Shown piece after piece: positions 7,857-28,187 of a stretch of DNA of 64,000 nt. The notes below the pieces were generated by a model. That model made no database searches and had not been told where the DNA came from. It worked only from the letters and a program-made list of their open reading frames with translations. Made by a program: the position numbers and the translations under genes. Where the stretch lies: contig JBHLNF010000001.1 in NCBI GenBank assembly GCA_048937405.1, positions 720,785-784,784 of the forward strand, written 5' to 3'. The DNA comes from Promethearchaeota archaeon. GTDB lineage: Archaea > Asgardarchaeota > Lokiarchaeia > Sigyniarchaeales > SOKP01. Every line of letters starts with the position of its first letter. The first letter of the stretch is position 1.

Positions 7857-7919
7857 GTGAGAGTTGATTGCTTAAAAAACATTAATTCATACTTGCATCA
7901 TTGGCTACATCATGAATAA
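7857..7919 (+). CDS. Putative His-rich leader peptide of the his operon (MRVDCLKNINSYLHHWLHHE; the frame extends to an ATG at 7755)
   Basis: CAT CAT TGG CTA CAT CAT GAA TAA gives 4 His in the last 7 sense codons, 81 nt upstream of hisIE. The start codon is uncertain (GTG 7857, TTG 7800 or ATG 7755). Confidence 0.7.
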   Translation: MRVDCLKNINSYLHHWLHHE

Positions 7920-7990
7920 TTCCGATGAATTAGTATAATATTTTATCATTTATTCATCGGAATAAAATCGAACTAAATTATTTTAGTTTG
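7919..7990 (+). promoter_or_regulatory. his leader RNA structures (attenuator-like)
   Basis: Perfect 12-bp stem ATTCCGATGAAT (7919-7930) / ATTCATCGGAAT (7952-7963) starting on the leader stop codon. A second stem CGAACTAAA-ttat-TTTAGTTTG (7969-7990) abuts the GGGGGA SD. Confidence 0.65.
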
Positions 7991-20286: not shown

Positions 20287-20625
20287 CTAACCGGGGTAAT
20301 CATTTTTTGATCCCATTAGAGTAGTTGTTTCTTCGATCCATTGAGATAAATCTTTATCAATTCTACAGAATGTAACAATTTTATCTAAATCTCTTAGTCT
20401 ACTAAATGAGCATTCTACCATAACATCCCATCCTCCATAAACAGGAGTAGCATATGTTATGTTCCAATCTTCTTTTGGATCTGTTGATTTTAAGCCCCTG
20501 AGTTTATCAACAACTTTCCATTCAGAACCAATTACTTTTAAGCGAATTAGTATATACCCTCTATAATACAATTTATGTGCATTGTTATTATTTTTGACAA
20601 CTTTATTATTCTTTTTTAGTTTCAT
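20287..20625 (-). CDS. Stand-alone Lrp/AsnC ligand-binding (RAM) domain protein
   Basis: GYILIRLKVIGSEWKVVDKL...VYGGWDVMVE...IEETTTL, with no HTH. Overlaps the argG 3' end and has a GGAGG SD. Confidence 0.7.
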   Translation of the reverse strand: MKLKKNNKVVKNNNNAHKLYYRGYILIRLKVIGSEWKVVDKLRGLKSTDPKEDWNITYATPVYGGWDVMVECSFSRLRDLDKIVTFCRIDKDLSQWIEETTTLMGSKNDYPG

Positions 20626-21907
20626 ATTTTATTACCTCCTCTATTTGATCTTTATTTGAATATCCTGTTATTGATTTAGCAATATTTCTTACTTGAAAAC
20701 CAATCTCACTTTGTAGTCCCCATATTGGAATGAATCCATAACTCAATTTTTGATTGAACGTACTCTTGGTATCATATGTAGCTAAATTTATATCATAAAG
20801 CCCATAAGGAGATTCTCTTGAAACCACGCTAGCGTTCCCCTTGAAAAGTTTCACTTTTACTTCTCCTGTAACCTTTTCATTTACAACATTAATAAATGCT
20901 TCTAAGGCGTCTCTTAACGGATCCACCCACAATCCTTCATAAATTAATTCTGTCCAACGTTGGTCTACTATCGTTTTAAATGAATTCTCATGTTTAGTAC
21001 AGACAAATTTTTCAAGATCTTTATGTGCCTTAATTAATATTAAAGCTGTTGGAACTTCATATACCTCCCTTGATTTTAATCCAATCGCTCGATCTTCCAT
21101 ATGATTTACTCTTCCAATTCCGTGTTTACAACCAATTTTATGTAATTCTCCAATTAAATCAACACCATTAATCTTTCTACCATTTAAACAGACTGGTATT
21201 CCTTTTTCAAAAGATATTTGGAGATATTTTGGTGTATCAGGCGCAGTTTCGGGTGAAGTTGTCCAAGAGAAACAATCTTCTGGGGGTTCAATTTCTGGGT
21301 TTTCTAAGACATCACATTCTGCACTTCTCCCGAAAAGATTCTCATCAACACTATATTTTTTATATTGTTGTTGAATAGGAATTCCATGGAGTTGAGCATA
21401 TTTAATTTCTTCATCTCTACCCATATTCCATTCTATTAAAGGTTGTAATATTTCAATATTAGGAGCATAAGCTCTCATTGTCACATTAAACCGTATTTGA
21501 TCATTTCCTTTTCCTGTACAACCATGAGCTATTGCCTCAATATTCTCTTGTTGTGCAATGTTTATAGCTTCAATAGCTATCAATGGTCTTCCTACTGCCG
21601 TGCTTAGGGGGTAAACTCCTTGATACAAACCGTTTGCTTTAATGGTAGGAAATAAATAATTATTTACAAACTTCTCTTTTAAATCTACGGTGTAGTGCTT
21701 AATCACCCCTAAATTATATGCCTTTTCCTCAATTTCCTTAAATCTGGATGGATCTGCGAATTCCTGACCGAGATCTGCTGTAAAAGTATAAATTTCAGAA
21801 CTATATTTATCTTGTAACCATTTTATCATGCAAGAAGTATCCAGACCACCAGAATACATCAATAAAATTTTATTATATTTATTTTTTTTAGGTCCTAACT
21901 GATTCAT
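20606..21907 (-). CDS. argG: Argininosuccinate synthase
   Basis: YSGGLDTS, HGCTGKGNDQIRF, YSVDENL, GLKSREVYE. Confidence 0.97.
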   Translation of the reverse strand: MNQLGPKKNKYNKILLMYSGGLDTSCMIKWLQDKYSSEIYTFTADLGQEFADPSRFKEIEEKAYNLGVIKHYTVDLKEKFVNNYLFPTIKANGLYQGVYPLSTAVGRPLIAIEAINIAQQENIEAIAHGCTGKGNDQIRFNVTMRAYAPNIEILQPLIEWNMGRDEEIKYAQLHGIPIQQQYKKYSVDENLFGRSAECDVLENPEIEPPEDCFSWTTSPETAPDTPKYLQISFEKGIPVCLNGRKINGVDLIGELHKIGCKHGIGRVNHMEDRAIGLKSREVYEVPTALILIKAHKDLEKFVCTKHENSFKTIVDQRWTELIYEGLWVDPLRDALEAFINVVNEKVTGEVKVKLFKGNASVVSRESPYGLYDINLATYDTKSTFNQKLSYGFIPIWGLQSEIGFQVRNIAKSITGYSNKDQIEEVIKYETKKE

Positions 21908-21955
21908 TAATCACTCACTTTCTTTTATTAATATCTATTATTTTATTATAATTTT

Positions 21956-23002
21956 TTATATAGGGAACATAGGAATTGATTTTAAACCTATATTCTCTTT
22001 TAAATTAAACATTAAATTCATATTTTGAACAGCTTGTCCTGCTCCACCCTTGACTAGATTATCAATTGCTCCAATTATAATTATTCTATTAGCTTTTTCA
22101 TCTAAACAAAATCCAATATCGCAATAATTTGATCCTTTAACCCATTTCGTTTCAGGGAATTCGTTTTTACCCATTAACCGAATAAAAAATTCATTACTAT
22201 AATTTTTTTCATATATTTTTTTGATATCTTCATAATTATATGACTTTTTGAGAATTCCATAGCAGGTACATAATATTCCTCTATTCATAGGGAGGAGATG
22301 CGGAGTAAAAATTACTGAAATTTCATTTCCTTTTAATTCACCTAATTCTTGTTCGATTTCTGGAGTATGTCGGTGAGATAATACTTTATATGCCTTAGTT
22401 GATTCATTACATTCTGAAAAATGGGTTCCAAGATTTAAAGATCTTCCAGCTCCTGATACTCCTGATTTTGCATCAATAATTATATTCCTTTCGTCCAAAA
22501 TCCCTTCTTTTATAAGAGGTAATAAACATAATAACGCACAAGTAGGATAGCAACCAGGATTAGCTACTAATTTTGAACTCTTTATTTGGTCTCTTTTCCA
22601 TTCTGAAAGACCGTAGACGGCTTTATTCAACAGACTAGCATTATTATGTTTAATACTATACCATAACTCGTATTCATCTACATTCTTTAATCGAAAATCT
22701 GCACTTAGATCAATAACTTTTACATTTTTTAAAATATCATCTGTTAATATCTCTGAAGTAACTCCATGAGGTAATGATAGAAATATGATATCAAGTTGGT
22801 TTATTGCAGAATTAAGATCATCCTCATCACAGATCATCTCACATATTTTATTGAAGTTTGAATAAACAGAATTATAACTTTGATTTTTATGATTTTTAGA
22901 TGTTAATAATTTTAATTCTACTTCAGGATGATTATATAAAATTCTGACTAATTCTGATCCTATATATCCAGTTGCTCCTATTATACCCGCTCTAATCATC
23001 AT
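21956..23002 (-). CDS. argC: N-acetyl-gamma-glutamyl-phosphate reductase
   Basis: IIGATGY, IDLSADFRL, ANPGCYPT, SGVSGAGR, HRHTPEI, DNLVKGGAGQAVQN. Confidence 0.97.
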   Translation of the reverse strand: MMIRAGIIGATGYIGSELVRILYNHPEVELKLLTSKNHKNQSYNSVYSNFNKICEMICDEDDLNSAINQLDIIFLSLPHGVTSEILTDDILKNVKVIDLSADFRLKNVDEYELWYSIKHNNASLLNKAVYGLSEWKRDQIKSSKLVANPGCYPTCALLCLLPLIKEGILDERNIIIDAKSGVSGAGRSLNLGTHFSECNESTKAYKVLSHRHTPEIEQELGELKGNEISVIFTPHLLPMNRGILCTCYGILKKSYNYEDIKKIYEKNYSNEFFIRLMGKNEFPETKWVKGSNYCDIGFCLDEKANRIIIIGAIDNLVKGGAGQAVQNMNLMFNLKENIGLKSIPMFPI

Positions 23003-24204
23003 TATAAGCCTTTATTATTTTTATTCTGTTGTAAAACATCATCAAGGATAGATATTCCTTCATCAATTTCATTTTTGCTAATAATCAGTGGTGGAACAAA
23101 TCTTATTACATTTTCTCCAGCACCTAATATAAGTAAACCTTGTTCCATAGATTTTTCTACTATATCCTTAACAGGAGTATTTAGTTCCAAACCAAGTATC
23201 AAACCATAACCTCTAACATCCTTAATCATAGCATATTTTTCCTTTAAAGTTGCTAGTTTCTCTTTTAGATATTCCCCTTGTTTTCGTACATTTTCAAGGA
23301 TTCCACCGTTTAACAATTTATTCAGTACTACTTTACCTGCTGTACATGCTAAATGATTACCTCCAAACGTTGATGCATGATCACCTGGTTGAAAAGCATC
23401 TGCTTTACTTTGAATTGCCAACATTGCTCCTATGGGAATACCTCCACCTAAACCTTTTGCTAATGAAACTACATCAGGTTTTACATCAAATATTTGATAT
23501 GCAAATAATTCACCAGTTCTTCCAATGCCACATTGAACTTCATCAAATACAAGTACAATATCTTTTTCATCACACAGAGCTCTTACTTTTTTTAAGTAAG
23601 ATTTCTCAGCAGGATGAATTCCTCCTTCACCTTGTATAGGCTCTATTATTATAGCACATGTGTCTTCATTAACTGCTCCTTTTAACTCATTAAAGTTATT
23701 TAATTCAACATAGGAAAATCCAGGCATTAGTGGATCAAATCCTTTTTGATATTTAGTCTGACCTGTAGCAGTGACAGTGGCCATTGTTCTTCCGTGAAAC
23801 GATCTCTTCATTGTGATAATTTTATGACAATTATCTCCATGGACTTTCTTTCCATATTTTTTACATAATTTTATTGCGGCTTCTACCGCCTCAGCTCCAC
23901 TATTACAATAAAAAATTTTATCGAAACAGCTATTTTTAATTAAAATCTCTCCTAACTCAATTGAGGGCATCATCCAGTACAAATTTGAACAATGTTGCAT
24001 TTTTTTTAATTGTGCAATAATTTCTTGGATATAATCAGGATCATTATAGCCTAAAGCATTTACAGCTATCCCAGCAACAAAATCTACATACTTTTTTCCA
24101 TCACTATCCCAGAGATAGATTCCATTTCCTTTTTCTAATACAATGGGAAACTGTTTATAAGTATTCATTATAACCTTAGTTCCCCTTTCAATCCAATCAC
24201 TCAT
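23002..24204 (-). CDS. argD: Acetylornithine aminotransferase
   Basis: DFVAGIAVNALG, NSGAEA, SFHGRT, EPIQGEGG, DEVQCG, AKGLGGG, HASTFGGN. Start placed at ATG 24204, after a GAGAGGA SD. Confidence 0.95.
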   Translation of the reverse strand: MSDWIERGTKVIMNTYKQFPIVLEKGNGIYLWDSDGKKYVDFVAGIAVNALGYNDPDYIQEIIAQLKKMQHCSNLYWMMPSIELGEILIKNSCFDKIFYCNSGAEAVEAAIKLCKKYGKKVHGDNCHKIITMKRSFHGRTMATVTATGQTKYQKGFDPLMPGFSYVELNNFNELKGAVNEDTCAIIIEPIQGEGGIHPAEKSYLKKVRALCDEKDIVLVFDEVQCGIGRTGELFAYQIFDVKPDVVSLAKGLGGGIPIGAMLAIQSKADAFQPGDHASTFGGNHLACTAGKVVLNKLLNGGILENVRKQGEYLKEKLATLKEKYAMIKDVRGYGLILGLELNTPVKDIVEKSMEQGLLILGAGENVIRFVPPLIISKNEIDEGISILDDVLQQNKNNKGL

Positions 24205-24247
24205 AATTAAATTCCTCTCTTTCATTTTTATATTTTTTTTTATAATA

Positions 24248-25108
24248 TTACTTTTTAAACATTGTACCAATCCCTTGAGGGGTAAAAATTTCAAGTAAAA
24301 GACTATGTTCAATTCTTCCATCAATAATATGAACTGCTTTTACATCATTATTTATTGCTTCTATACAACTTCTTACTTTTGGAATCATCCCTTCTGTAAT
24401 TTTACCTTCTCTAATATAAGATAAAGCTTGTTCAGTCTTCAATTCTGATATTAGTGAATTGTTATCATTTACATCTAGAAGTACTCCTAAAACGTCAGTT
24501 ATATAGATTAACTTTTCTACATTTAATGCTTTTGAAATAGCTAGTGCTACTTCATCAGCATTAATATTATATGTATTTCCTAAATTATCTGAGCCTATTG
24601 GTGCAATAACTGGAATTAAAGCATTTTTAAGTATCCCTTTCAAAAATTGAGTATTCACTTCAGTAACCTCTCCAACAAAACCTAAATCTTCTCCGTCAAC
24701 CATTTTTTTCTTTACTTTCAATAAATTACTATCTTTCCCACTCAGTCCTAATGCATTACTTCCTTGAGTCTGAATATCATTTACAATTCCTTTATTTATT
24801 TTTCCAGCTAATACCATTTCGACAACATCCATTGTTTCTTCATCAGTAATTCTAAGTCCATTAAAAAATTTTGACTCGATCTTTAATTTTCTTAATAAAA
24901 TATTAATTGAAGCTCCGCCCCCATGCACAACTATTATATTAATTCCTACGAAATCGAGGAAAACAAGATCTTCAATAAAACCCTTTTTAAGCTCAGGTTT
25001 TACCATTGCGCTACCACCATATTTTATAACAAAAGTTTTTCCATAAAATGCTCTAATGTATTTTATTGCTTCTATCAAAATTCTTGCTTTTCCAATATTT
25101 TCAATCAT
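24248..25108 (-). CDS. argB: Acetylglutamate kinase
   Basis: VIKYGGSAM, VVHGGG, GLRITD, YNINAD, GMIPKV, HSLLLEIFT. Start placed at ATG 25108, after an AAGGTGG SD. Confidence 0.96.
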   Translation of the reverse strand: MIENIGKARILIEAIKYIRAFYGKTFVIKYGGSAMVKPELKKGFIEDLVFLDFVGINIIVVHGGGASINILLRKLKIESKFFNGLRITDEETMDVVEMVLAGKINKGIVNDIQTQGSNALGLSGKDSNLLKVKKKMVDGEDLGFVGEVTEVNTQFLKGILKNALIPVIAPIGSDNLGNTYNINADEVALAISKALNVEKLIYITDVLGVLLDVNDNNSLISELKTEQALSYIREGKITEGMIPKVRSCIEAINNDVKAVHIIDGRIEHSLLLEIFTPQGIGTMFKK

Positions 25109-25121
25109 TTTTTCCACCTTT

Positions 25122-26363
25122 TCAGGTTCTATAAGATCCATTAATTCGAACATAATCATAACTTAAATCACATCCCCATGCGATTGCTTCACTTTCTCCA
25201 TCCTTTAAAAGCAATTCTACAATAATTTCATTTTCTTTTAATATTTTTAGTGCTAAATCTTCATCAAATTGTAAAGCACTTCCATCTTTCATAACCTCGA
25301 TTGAATTAACATCATTCAAAAATTTTATTGATACTTTTAATGGATCAAATTTTGCTCCAGAGTAGCCCATTGCAGCAATAATCCTACCCCAATTTGCGTC
25401 TTCTCCAAAAAAGGCTGTCTTTACTAAATTTGAGGTTATTACGGATTTACTTAAGATTTTTGCATCTTGTTTTGATGCAGCTCCTTTGACGTGAACTGCA
25501 ATAAATTTGCTAGCTCCTTCTCCATCTCTTACAATCTCTTGAGCTAAATATAAATTTACATAGTGAAGTGCGTTTTTAAAAATAAAATATTCTTCACTTT
25601 CATCAAAAATTTCTGAGTTATTACCCATTCCATTAGCCAAAAGAATTACTGAATCACTGGTACTTGTATCACCATCTACAGAGATCATATTATATGATTC
25701 TTCAATACTTTCTCTAAACGCTTTTTCTAATAATTCTTTTGAAATATTAATATCAGTTGAAATAAATGAAAGCATAGTAGCCATATTTGGATGAATCATT
25801 CCAGAACCCTTCGCCATCCCTCCTATTCTAATTTTCTTATTATCAATAATAAATTCAACCGAGATCTCTTTAGGATGTGTATCTGTCGTCATAACTGCTT
25901 CAGCAGCTAATCTTGCATCTTTATCTCTACTCCCTATGTTTTTATACGTATTTTTAATACCCTCAATTATAATTTCAATTGGAAGAGGCTTTCCAATAAC
26001 TCCTGTAGAAGCAACAATTACTTGATTTTTCTTTATTCCTAAACAAGAGGCTAACTCAGCTGCCATCATTTCATTATGTTTAATTCCCATTTCTCCTGTA
26101 CAAACATTCGCATTTCCACTATTAACGACTATGCCTTGTATCAAATTGTGATTTTGAATAAGATTTTGATTCCATAATACAGAAGGAGCTTTTACAATAT
26201 TTGTAGTAAAAACCCCTACTGCTTTAGCCGGAACTTCACTATATACTATAGCTAGGTCTTTCTTGCATTCTTTAATCCCTATATGGCAACCAGTAGCATG
26301 AAATCCTTTTGGACTTGTAATTCCTCCTTTTAATTTTGTTATATCAATATTTTTTTTTTCCAT
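25122..26363 (-). CDS. argJ: Ornithine acetyltransferase / N-acetylglutamate synthase
   Basis: NSGNAN, STGVIG, MTTDT, KGSGMIHPNMATML (autoproteolysis Thr), DGEGA, NWGRI, WGCDLSYDYVRINGSYRT. Confidence 0.97.
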   Translation of the reverse strand: MEKKNIDITKLKGGITSPKGFHATGCHIGIKECKKDLAIVYSEVPAKAVGVFTTNIVKAPSVLWNQNLIQNHNLIQGIVVNSGNANVCTGEMGIKHNEMMAAELASCLGIKKNQVIVASTGVIGKPLPIEIIIEGIKNTYKNIGSRDKDARLAAEAVMTTDTHPKEISVEFIIDNKKIRIGGMAKGSGMIHPNMATMLSFISTDINISKELLEKAFRESIEESYNMISVDGDTSTSDSVILLANGMGNNSEIFDESEEYFIFKNALHYVNLYLAQEIVRDGEGASKFIAVHVKGAASKQDAKILSKSVITSNLVKTAFFGEDANWGRIIAAMGYSGAKFDPLKVSIKFLNDVNSIEVMKDGSALQFDEDLALKILKENEIIVELLLKDGESEAIAWGCDLSYDYVRINGSYRT

Positions 26364-26436
26364 ATCTTAAAACATACCTTTTATTTCCATTTCTTGAACC
26401 TATTAAAATTTATATCTTGATTATTTTGTTTGAAAA

Positions 26437-26506
26437 ATTAATAAAAATAAAAAATTAGAAGAAGTGGAGAAAGAAGAATGACACTTCATTTCTTACTTTT
26501 ATTAAT
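26437..26506 (-). promoter_or_regulatory. arg leader long hairpin that sequesters a U-tract (attenuator-like)
   Basis: mRNA 5' arm AUUAAUAAAAGUAAGAAAU-GAAGUG pairs with CACUUC-(UUCUA)-AUUUUUUAUUUUUAUUAAU: 19 bp (2 GU) plus 6 bp. It begins 3 nt after the leader stop codon. Confidence 0.65.
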
Positions 26507-26509
26507 AAA

Positions 26510-26605
26510 TTAAAGACGGCGACGTGCCGAGTATAGATTGCGTAGTGCTTTTTGAAATTGTTTTCCTACAATTTCGTTATTCATATAAGAATCAAATAAA
26601 ATCAT
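26510..26605 (-). CDS. Putative Arg-rich leader peptide of the argJBDCG operon (MILFDSYMNNEIVGKQFQKALRNLYSARRRL; alternative start at 26584)
   Basis: ATG preceded by GGTG at 8 nt. The ORF ends GCA CGT CGC CGT CTT TAA, and all four Arg codons are CGY. It lies 146 nt upstream of argJ. Confidence 0.78.
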   Translation of the reverse strand: MILFDSYMNNEIVGKQFQKALRNLYSARRRL

Positions 26606-26655
26606 ACTTCAAACACCAACACAATATTAACAATAATTTAAAATAGGAACCTAAC

Positions 26656-26672
26656 TATAAAAATTTACCGTT
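26656..26672 (-). promoter_or_regulatory. Candidate BRE/TATA promoter for the arg leader and operon
   Basis: The minus strand reads AACGGTAAA-TTTTTATA about 50 nt upstream of the leader ATG at 26605. Confidence 0.45.
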
Positions 26673-26702
26673 TCTTCTTGATTATTTTTCAATAATCTGT
26701 TT

Positions 26703-28187
26703 TTATGAGATTAATTTCTCAATAAGTTCGTCTCTTTGAAGTTCAGCGTTTCTTATTTTTTCTATTCTGTTTAAAAACGATGTGTACAATGAATCTTTTC
26801 TTGTACTTAAATTATTAATATTAAGTTTGATCTCTTTTCCAGATGGAGAACCTTGACTAATTCTTCTTTCTAAACAAAGATCTAAATTCTTTAATGTTTG
26901 AATTATTTTATCTGATATATTTACTTCCTTCTTTATCACATCAAAAATCGATTTCTCAATTTTTTCTCTATTTAGCATATCTTCTGGCTTTTCTATATTA
27001 TTTACTAAACGAGCAACAACTTCATGTGATTGTCTAAAAGGAATTTTATAATCTTGTACTAACAGTTCTGCTAAATCCAATGCTAGAATATAACTCTCAC
27101 CAATAGCACTTCTCATTTTCTCTTTATTAATCGATATTGTTGAAAATATACCTTTAAACATAGTAATTACGGAAAGTATCGTATTAATCGAACTTATTAA
27201 TTTTTTCTTTATATCCTGAAAATCCATAAAATAGCCTGTTGGAATTGCTTTAATAATCATTGCTGCATTAAACAGGTTTGAAACAACTTTTGTACTTCTA
27301 CTTCTTATTAATTCTACAGTATCTGGATTTTTTTTTTGCGGCATAACACTTGAAACAGAACAATATTCATCTGCTAATTCTATAAAGTTAAATTCTTTAG
27401 TTGCCCATATTATTAAATCTTCGGCAATTCTCGAAAATTGAATAGCCAGTAAAGATAGTCCCATTAATGTTTCATAAAGATAATCTTTTGAACTAATCGC
27501 ATCAATAGAATTATAAATTATTCCATCAAAACCTAATAATTCTGCCGTTCTTTCTCTATTAATATTAATACTTGTTCCACCTATAGCACATGCTCCTAAG
27601 GGATTTTTATTAATTCTATTATAAATCTCTTCTAATCTTTCTAGAGATCTTAAAATTTGTGCAATGTAATTATTTATATAATGAGAAAAAGTCCCTAATT
27701 GACCTCTCTGTAAATGAGTATATAATGGCATATATGAATTTATGTTATTTTTAGAAATATTTAGCAAAATATCAACAAGAGCGAATAATTCTTCGGAAAT
27801 CTTGTTTAATTCTTTCCTGATTTTTAATCTTAAATCAAGTGATACTTGATCATTTCTAGATCTGCCAGTATGAATTTTACCCCCTATTTCAATCCCAATT
27901 GCATCTATAACACTTTTTTCTATAAATGGATGTATATCTTCAAAACTCTCATCAATTTCAATCTGATTATTCTTTAACTTTTTCATTATATCTTCAAGGA
28001 CAATTAAGATTTTCCTTATTTCACTTTCGTCAAGGATTTTTTGTTCAAATAGCATAATAGTATGAACTTGAGTACCAATAATATCTTCTTCAGCAATCCA
28101 AAAGTCTTCCTTTAAAGATGAGATAAACTTAAGTGCATTGTCGTTAAGAGGGATATCCAATCCTGTCCTATATAAATTTTTTCTCAT
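26703..28187 (-). CDS. argH: Argininosuccinate lyase
   Basis: EDIH, HTGRSRNDQ, MPLYTHLQ, SSVMPQKKNPD, PFRQSH. Confidence 0.97.
   Translation of the reverse strand: MRKNLYRTGLDIPLNDNALKFISSLKEDFWIAEEDIIGTQVHTIMLFEQKILDESEIRKILIVLEDIMKKLKNNQIEIDESFEDIHPFIEKSVIDAIGIEIGGKIHTGRSRNDQVSLDLRLKIRKELNKISEELFALVDILLNISKNNINSYMPLYTHLQRGQLGTFSHYINNYIAQILRSLERLEEIYNRINKNPLGACAIGGTSININRERTAELLGFDGIIYNSIDAISSKDYLYETLMGLSLLAIQFSRIAEDLIIWATKEFNFIELADEYCSVSSVMPQKKNPDTVELIRSRSTKVVSNLFNAAMIIKAIPTGYFMDFQDIKKKLISSINTILSVITMFKGIFSTISINKEKMRSAIGESYILALDLAELLVQDYKIPFRQSHEVVARLVNNIEKPEDMLNREKIEKSIFDVIKKEVNISDKIIQTLKNLDLCLERRISQGSPSGKEIKLNINNLSTRKDSLYTSFLNRIEKIRNAELQRDELIEKLIS

Follow-up and report, generated by a model that had tools for sequence, protein, structure and literature searches.

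Does the short, arginine-rich reading frame in front of the arginine biosynthesis operon argJBDCG of a Promethearchaeota archaeon allow the ribosome to gauge arginine supply and to set the expression of the operon accordingly? The frame lies on the minus strand of the window, by which we mean the whole stretch of 64,000 nucleotides analyzed, and occupies the spacer between argH, which ends at 26703, and argJ, which starts at 26363. The genome (G000), from an organism for which metagenomes are the only source, comprises 4.47 Mb in 29 contigs and has 28.9% G+C. The ORF starts with an ATG at 26605–26603, continues for 31 sense codons to a TAA at 26512–26510, and encodes a peptide with the C-terminal tail SARRRL. 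An initial annotation of this DNA had described the ORF, a Shine–Dalgarno (SD) motif GGTG whose end lies 8 nt 5′ of the ATG, a candidate TATA box, and four CGC or CGT codons, and all of these are present where it had placed them (Table 1). It had also singled out a GC-rich patch in an AT-rich spacer, and the patch indeed has 67% G+C against 24% for the whole 339-nt argH–argJ spacer. The position assigned to the frame was borne out by Pfam, which identified argH upstream and argJ, argB, argD, argC, and argG downstream. The motif GGTG is a credible SD in this genome, since it precedes long ORFs 134 times at spacers of 4 to 11 nt and 17 times at spacers of 15 to 22 nt. An open frame of 31 codons is by itself not unusual for a spacer of such size, and what beats chance is its conservation.

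Table 1. Features of the argJ leader and its surroundings, in window coordinates.
Feature	Position	Strand	Remarks
argH, upstream gene	26703–28187	-	Pfam Lyase_1 and ASL_C2; order argH–leader–argJ shared by 8 species genomes
TATA-like box of the putative leader promoter	26656–26663	-	TTTTTATA here, TTTATATA in relatives; among the few blocks kept in all upstream alignments; about 32 nt 5′ of the conserved 5′ arm
P0, 5′ arm	26612–26624	-	Contains the SD GGTG (26617–26614); GTTGGTG invariant in 22 copies, GGTG in 23; pairs with 26550–26538 in the G000 MFE fold and the RNAalifold consensus
Leader ORF, 31 codons and TAA	26510–26605	-	Open in 23/23 homologues; start codon TTG in 21 copies, ATG in G000 and G148
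Hairpin P1 within the ORF	26554–26575	-	GAAATTG, 8-nt loop, CAATTTC; stem invariant or G–U compatible in 22 copies, loop varies
P0, 3′ arm (codons 19–23)	26538–26550	-	CACT/CACC opposite the SD; 99% of cells paired; one compensatory G–C to A–U change
Arg codon 22 (CGC)	26540–26542	-	Arg in only 4/23 homologues
Arg codons 28–30 (CGT CGC CGT)	26516–26524	-	Core of the GC-rich patch 26513–26530; codon 28 Arg in 23/23, codon 30 in 20/23, codon 29 in 10/23
Hairpin after the leader stop	26437–26506	-	Core GAAGTG (26487–26482) with CACTTC (26466–26461); C/U-rich loop and 3′ arm; A-rich/U-rich extension
U-tract, putative terminator	26433–26454	-	T6 A T5 ATTAA T5, a T7 run in relatives; T run invariant or nearly so in alignment A1
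argJ-argB-argD-argC-argG, operon presumed controlled	20606–26363	-	Pfam ArgJ, AA_kinase, Aminotran_3, Semialdhyde_dh, Arginosuc_synth

Two further features of the spacer and operon were noted. Just before argJ, G000 alone carries a 26-nt insertion (window 26367–26390, minus strand) that resembles a duplication of the argJ start region and creates a mini-ORF of 7 codons, MEIKGMF, ending 3 nt before the true argJ ATG. At the other end of the operon, a 112-aa ORF (window 20287–20625, minus strand) shares 20 nt with the end of argG and may be the last gene of the arg operon; it has no significant family in Pfam or NCBIfam, neither of which bore out its reading as a RAM/ACT-type ligand-binding domain.

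The leader is linked strictly to argJ. BLAST searches of the order detected it in seven species genomes, and a pattern scan added metagenome contigs to give 22 close sequences; with a diverged copy in the genome G148, the set comprises 23 distinct copies from nine species genomes and metagenome contigs, every one of them directly 5′ of argJ. Among the 134 genomes of the family, argJ is carried by nine, across two genera, and a covariance model built on all 23 copies (R1) found one copy in each of these nine, G000 included, with no match in the other 125 and no second copy within G000. The tie to argJBDCG claimed at the outset is thereby upheld within the family, while three argJ-carrying genomes from other families of the order (G047, G053, and G038) showed no such leader. 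Given the patchy occurrence of the operon, most relatives appear not to make arginine by the argJ route. The copy in G148, where argJ is only 59% identical, has no BLAST match at E ≤ 0.01; it lies at L111:1068–1160, has 30 codons, six of them for Arg, and a GGTG 9 nt 5′ of its ATG, and aligns to the others without gaps, its peptide scoring 17 in comparison with −8 ± 8 for shuffled sequences (P = 0.0055). The upstream neighbor in G148 is not argH, and the leader has nevertheless been kept. In most relatives, 100 to 200 additional nucleotides upstream of the TATA box separate argH from the leader promoter, and they hold further conserved blocks, such as TTGAAAATTGTTCAA and AAATGTTTAAT, that are missing from G000.

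The substitution pattern within the ORF shows that the frame has been kept open. Despite 161 substitutions inferred by tree parsimony over 90 aligned ORF positions, none of the 23 leaders contains an in-frame stop; when the inferred substitution events were re-run with random target bases, the probability of no stop in any of the 23 was 0.014 with the columns kept and 0.0004–0.0006 with random columns. The 90 aligned nucleotides (30 codons) carry no indels, and both flanks carry many. Of the leaders, 21 are 31 codons long; one, with 4 nt inserted past its Arg codons, has 35, and that of G148 has 30. The frame starts with TTG in 21 copies and ATG in two, has GGTG 8 to 9 nt upstream in all 23, and ends with TAA at the same alignment column in 21. 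Codon 28 encodes Arg in every copy and does so by three synonymous codons (CGT in 7, CGG in 15, and CGC in 1); most of the CGG codons stand in a CGG-x-CGG motif in which x encodes Leu or His, and one large clade has this motif. Codons 25 and 30 are Arg in 20 copies each, the former always AGA, and codon 29 is otherwise Leu, His, or Pro. In total the leaders have from 2 to 8 Arg, with two to five in the last six codons, compared with a proteome Arg frequency of 3.6% in G000. As read from the alignment, the conserved rule is at least two Arg codons among the last four, usually with a third one three codons earlier. The numbers of substitutions at codon positions 1, 2, and 3 were 50, 50, and 61, a mild enrichment at the third position. 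Outside the segments that pair as RNA the peptide is variable, and the codons conserved best fall within RNA stems, so that selection on the RNA could account for much of the conservation. A variable peptide in a kept frame is nevertheless the pattern that would be expected of a regulatory leader peptide, and with its frame open, its Arg codons clustered before the stop, and codon 28 always Arg, the proposed Arg-rich leader ORF has held up well.

The choice of Arg codons is a different matter. The initial annotation had argued that the leader uses only CGU and CGC, that neighboring genes mostly use AGA, and that the peptide would sense the charging of a single minor isoacceptor. Codon usage in the neighborhood is as described: among the 73 Arg codons of the six arg genes, 57 are AGA, 7 AGG, 5 CGA, 2 CGT, and 2 CGG, with no CGC, which leaves CGY at 2 of 73. 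Genome-wide, in 2974 long ORFs, AGA makes up 54.5% of Arg codons, followed by CGA (15.2%), CGT (12.0%), AGG (11.9%), CGG (3.3%), and CGC (3.2%); CGY thus totals 15%, and four CGY among the four Arg codons of the G000 leader has a probability of about 5e-4 under genome codon usage. The tRNA complement is coherent with the claim as far as G000 is concerned. We found one gene each for tRNA-Arg(GCG) (G000:C28:398004–398135, minus strand), tRNA-Arg(UCG) (G000:C7:512074–512206, minus strand), and tRNA-Arg(UCU), and with one tRNA-Arg(GCG) gene all four Arg codons of the leader would depend on a single minor isoacceptor there. Putative introns interrupt both the D-loop and the variable region of the GCG and UCG genes, two per gene; we located these genes manually, and aragorn confirmed them once the introns had been removed in silico. 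Such noncanonical introns account for the low yield of the standard finders in G000, where aragorn reported only 7 to 14 tRNAs and the Rfam tRNA model only 20. Genes for tRNA-Arg with CCG and CCT anticodons were not found in the G000 tRNA census, which does not prove their absence; an aragorn call of Arg(CCG) at C20:40631–40721 was a misparse, as its anticodon loop reads GAC (Val). Once the argJ upstream regions of relatives are aligned, the isoacceptor argument does not extend beyond G000 and its like: the run of three Arg together with the choice of CGY occurs in 7 of the 23 copies, and the leader Arg codons of homologues include CGG and AGA as well as AGG and CGA. The inferred ancestral state of codons 28–30 is CGT CGC CGT. 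Judging from these sequences, sensing by CGU and CGC alone cannot be the general principle of the leader.

Arginine is not the only amino acid with such a frame in this genome. We scanned 7865 short ORFs in 2407 upstream regions of G000 for tails in which one residue fills four of nine positions or occurs three times in a row. The only Trp-cluster uORF, with the tail WQWPWRW, lies 149 nt before the gene of a TrpB-like (TrpB2-type) PLP enzyme; it is located outside the window at L071:1566–1616 (minus strand; G000:C7:23743–23793) and has 16 codons, four of them Trp, followed by a T-run. Matches to this leader region occur in 30 other family genomes, and all 20 relatives fetched retain 4 to 5 Trp codons and the T-run that follows. 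The only His-cluster uORF (window 7857–7922, plus strand) ends in HHWLHH, one further residue, and a stop, 81 nt ahead of hisIE; nine relatives retain it, with 4 to 6 His codons. Two hairpins with compensatory changes follow its stop (to approximately 8000), the second of them abutting the hisIE SD (GGGGG), and there is no U-tract. Arg-type hits numbered eleven, and the argJ leader is the only one that precedes an arg gene; the other ten, set aside as candidates, precede genes for a thiolase, an Spt5-NGN protein, an FMN reductase, a histidine-kinase ATPase, and unknown proteins. Three cognate matches, for Arg, Trp, and His, are very unlikely to arise by chance in one genome, and nothing argues more strongly that these frames are read by ribosomes.

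A conserved frame of 31 codons, rich in Arg codons and found before the arg operon in every family relative that has the operon, most likely serves the ribosome to gauge arginine supply. In the mechanism that we propose, transcription would start approximately 25 nt downstream of the conserved TATA box, and a ribosome would bind the GGUG SD and translate the 31 codons. With charged tRNA-Arg scarce, it would stall at codons 25–30, and with charged tRNA-Arg plentiful, it would reach the stop codon. The position of the ribosome would then decide whether RNA polymerase, or the transcript, passes the hairpin and oligo-U tract before argJ, with termination either intrinsic or assisted by aCPSF1/FttA; argJBDCG would be on in arginine shortage and cut short in arginine plenty. 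On the comparative evidence, we regard it as likely that the leader is a cis-acting uORF through which the ribosome senses arginine, with translation and stalling as the signal. The full account, a ribosome-read Arg sensor with control of passage at the hairpin and U-tract, is the one that we favor, with slightly less assurance. Premature termination at the U-tract as the output is a tentative proposal, to which we give somewhat less than even weight.

The region between leader and argJ may hold a terminator. All copies have a hairpin there, together with a conserved run of T7 or T6AT5. The hairpin forms in every homologue with a varying pairing register, and a 5-nt deletion in five sequences spares its stem; the spacer between stop and hairpin is 16 to 25 nt in most copies and absent in G148. 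In the latter (L111:1161–1240), the last base of the stop codon opens a long compound hairpin, which includes two A-tracts and three U-tracts with possible alternative pairings, and the switch may be easiest to work out in this copy. In G000, T7 runs are approximately twice as frequent after stops as before starts and double T5 approximately four times, the latter occurring in 3.5% of regions downstream of stops and 0.9% of those upstream of starts. Termination at U-tracts with aCPSF1 is documented in archaea and depends on the U-tracts and aCPSF1/FttA, not on hairpins (review PMC13675443), and the switch may for this reason differ from the bacterial scheme. G000 has a Beta-CASP ORF of the size of aCPSF1 (638 aa). 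Against termination, the T-rich tract could instead be the TATA region of a second promoter. A simple pattern-based scan for sigma-70 promoters and terminators found no terminator there and was uninformative.

How the ribosome would influence termination is less apparent. We found no alternative fold that could serve as an antiterminator: in folds with a ribosome masking codon 28, codon 30, or the stop, the 3′ hairpin was unchanged, and pairing of the U-tract changed slightly and inconsistently (0.57 versus 0.49 on average). A ribosome at the stop clearly freed the U-tract from pairing with the A-rich spacer in G000 and L013, an effect that was absent in most others. Classical antiterminator pairings for which we looked, of the leader's 5′ UCACUU with the 5′ arm of the hairpin, of AGAAUU with the AAUUCU that lies at the stop, and of the arm bearing the SD with the Arg patch, were neither conserved nor favored by the fold.

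This lack of an antiterminator lends some weight to a reading in which arginine is sensed by ribosome stalling all the same, with translation of argJ or stability of the transcript, altered through mRNA folding, as the output in place of termination. The His leader of G000, with its hairpins beside the hisIE SD and no U-tract, points the same way, and there are bacterial precedents in the mycobacterial poly-Cys uORFs (bioRxiv 10.1101/834739) and the Salmonella orf34/speF leader (PMC6386406). We nevertheless consider this output unlikely. Occlusion of the argJ ribosome-binding site by the C/U tract was rejected as its pairing lay within background: the tract pairs with the argJ initiation region no better than with 600 others (background fraction 0.03–0.9, mostly 0.2–0.4), and the strong, conserved U-run between leader and argJ also speaks against a translational or stability output.

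A second reading dispenses with the ribosome as sensor and takes the leader for a structured noncoding RNA, riboswitch-like or protein-bound, in which a ligand or protein reads arginine and the frame is a by-product. The RNA is indeed predicted to be structured. The G000 leader folds with −45.7 kcal/mol (z = −4.29 in comparison with shuffled controls), and the homologues share a three-way consensus fold in which the long-range helix P0 sequesters the SD and encloses the start codon, a weak hairpin, and P1; 92.6% of cells are paired overall and 99% in P0 and P1. The GC-rich patch and the codons upstream of it take part in conserved pairing, and the weak third-position bias also suits a noncoding RNA. 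Changes in P0 and P1 are mostly G–U compatible with one compensatory change each, and only 2 pairs have double changes. Against the noncoding reading, covariation among the homologues was not above shuffled controls, the sequences being too similar for a stronger test. The absence of stops would be unlikely without selection on the frame. In G148, where pairing of the SD to GCACC is kept and the partner of the AAUUUC arm of P1 has moved to the start codon, the leader still retains its frame, start, SD spacing, and Arg positions. The cognate-codon logic moreover recurs at trp and his genes, and Rfam gave no match at gathering score in the window and none even at E ≤ 1 in 26350–26720. Taken together, we think a purely RNA-based sensor quite improbable. 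For the ribosome-read sensor, the paired SD of the predicted fold would hinder translation, and the modeled P0 helix may serve to admit only one pioneer ribosome or to set the time of its entry. P1 was also considered as the DNA operator of a dimeric repressor and judged unlikely, lying approximately 50 nt inside the transcript and within the ORF. In favor of the ribosome-read sensor, no ArgR C-terminal domain was found in the G000 genome.

We see a very small chance that the leader is an independent small gene with its own promoter and terminator, the basic 31-residue product or the RNA acting in trans and argJ being transcribed from a promoter in the T-rich tract. The conserved TATA box upstream, the hairpin and U-tract downstream, and a TATA-like TTTTTTTATAA approximately 40 nt before the argJ start in relatives would fit such a gene, but its peptide is poorly conserved outside RNA stems, varies in length at the C terminus (31, 35, and 30 codons), belongs to no Pfam family, and was never found apart from argJ. 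That the frame is a chance product of an ordinary argH terminator and argJ promoter spacer is extremely improbable: 31 codons are not rare in approximately 340 nt and TATA-like and T-rich strings abound in AT-rich spacers, yet the frame is kept in 23 sequences from two genera with invariant SD, start, stop, and Arg-28, and in G148 without an argH neighbor.

The argJ leader is then real, conserved, and linked to argJ, and, as judged from its sequence, probably a new archaeal form of amino acid–sensing leader ORF. A wider proposition is that Promethearchaeota have a set of leader ORFs, read by ribosomes and serving Arg, His, and Trp at the least, that couple levels of charged tRNA to operons through U-tract/aCPSF1 termination. 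This would be the first ribosome-mediated attenuation in Archaea, and its logic would be unlike that of alternative hairpins, for example a helix that hides the SD and lets in a single pioneer ribosome, or a masked U-tract; we offer the proposition tentatively, as nearly evenly balanced. Leader-peptide attenuation is the textbook case of regulation by coupled transcription and translation and is regarded as bacterial, and Asgard archaea are the closest prokaryotic relatives of eukaryotes. If the proposition is true, transcription and translation would be coupled in Asgard cells tightly enough for gene control, and amino acid sensing by uORFs would predate or parallel the eukaryotic uORF control of GCN4, ATF4, and the arginine attenuator peptide. 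In practical terms, the argJ leader is a small, defined, and portable element for testing the influence of ribosomes on archaeal U-tract/aCPSF1 termination, its strict linkage to argJ marks lineages that make their own arginine, and the unannotated leader ORFs belong in Asgard genome annotation.

Among known systems, the nearest in layout are the bacterial leader-peptide attenuators (trpL, hisL, pheL, thrL, leuL, and ilvL; Rfam Trp_leader and His_leader, among others). They share with the argJ leader a short, SD-led ORF before a biosynthetic operon, codons for the end product clustered near the end of the ORF, a hairpin and U-run before the first gene, and the occurrence of several leaders with different cognate amino acids in one genome. 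In contrast, the present case comes from an Asgard host with a TATA-box promoter and U-tract/aCPSF1-type termination, the argJ leader has no match to any Rfam leader, no 1:2/2:3/3:4 scheme of alternative hairpins was found in it, and a predicted long-range helix sequesters the SD. Arginine, which enterobacteria control with ArgR, is not among the amino acids classically sensed by leader peptides. Apart from the hisS case that they added themselves, the leader peptides known to Naville and Gautheret in their survey of 2010 all came from Proteobacteria and Actinobacteria (PMC2965389). Full-text literature searches returned no report of leader-peptide attenuation in archaea.

Pausing at Arg codons in a uORF has a parallel in Salmonella, where low arginine causes pausing at consecutive Arg codons of orf34 in the speF leader and changes the folding of the mRNA, and translation of orf34 also counteracts factor-dependent termination (Ben-Zvi et al. 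2019, PMC6386406). That system, unlike the argJ leader, is bacterial, controls a polyamine gene, and acts via Rho and RNase G, and the two have no sequence relationship. The fungal arginine attenuator peptide (AAP) of the CPA1/arg-2 uORF senses free arginine via a conserved nascent peptide that stalls at the stop codon, and it needs for that reason no Arg codons. Like the AAP, the argJ leader is a uORF before an arginine biosynthesis gene, proposed to make expression respond to arginine; it differs in conserving Arg codons within an otherwise variable peptide. In mycobacteria, leaderless short ORFs with poly-cysteine form a "Cys ribulon" in which the stalled ribosome unmasks a downstream ribosome-binding site (Canestrari et al., bioRxiv 10.1101/834739). 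Those ORFs are leaderless and ours SD-led, and pairing of the ribosome-binding site is here not above background. The likeness lies in the runs of cognate codons in unannotated uORFs, in control at the level of the operon, and in the presence of several loci, and the Trp, His, and Arg leaders described here would form a comparable set.
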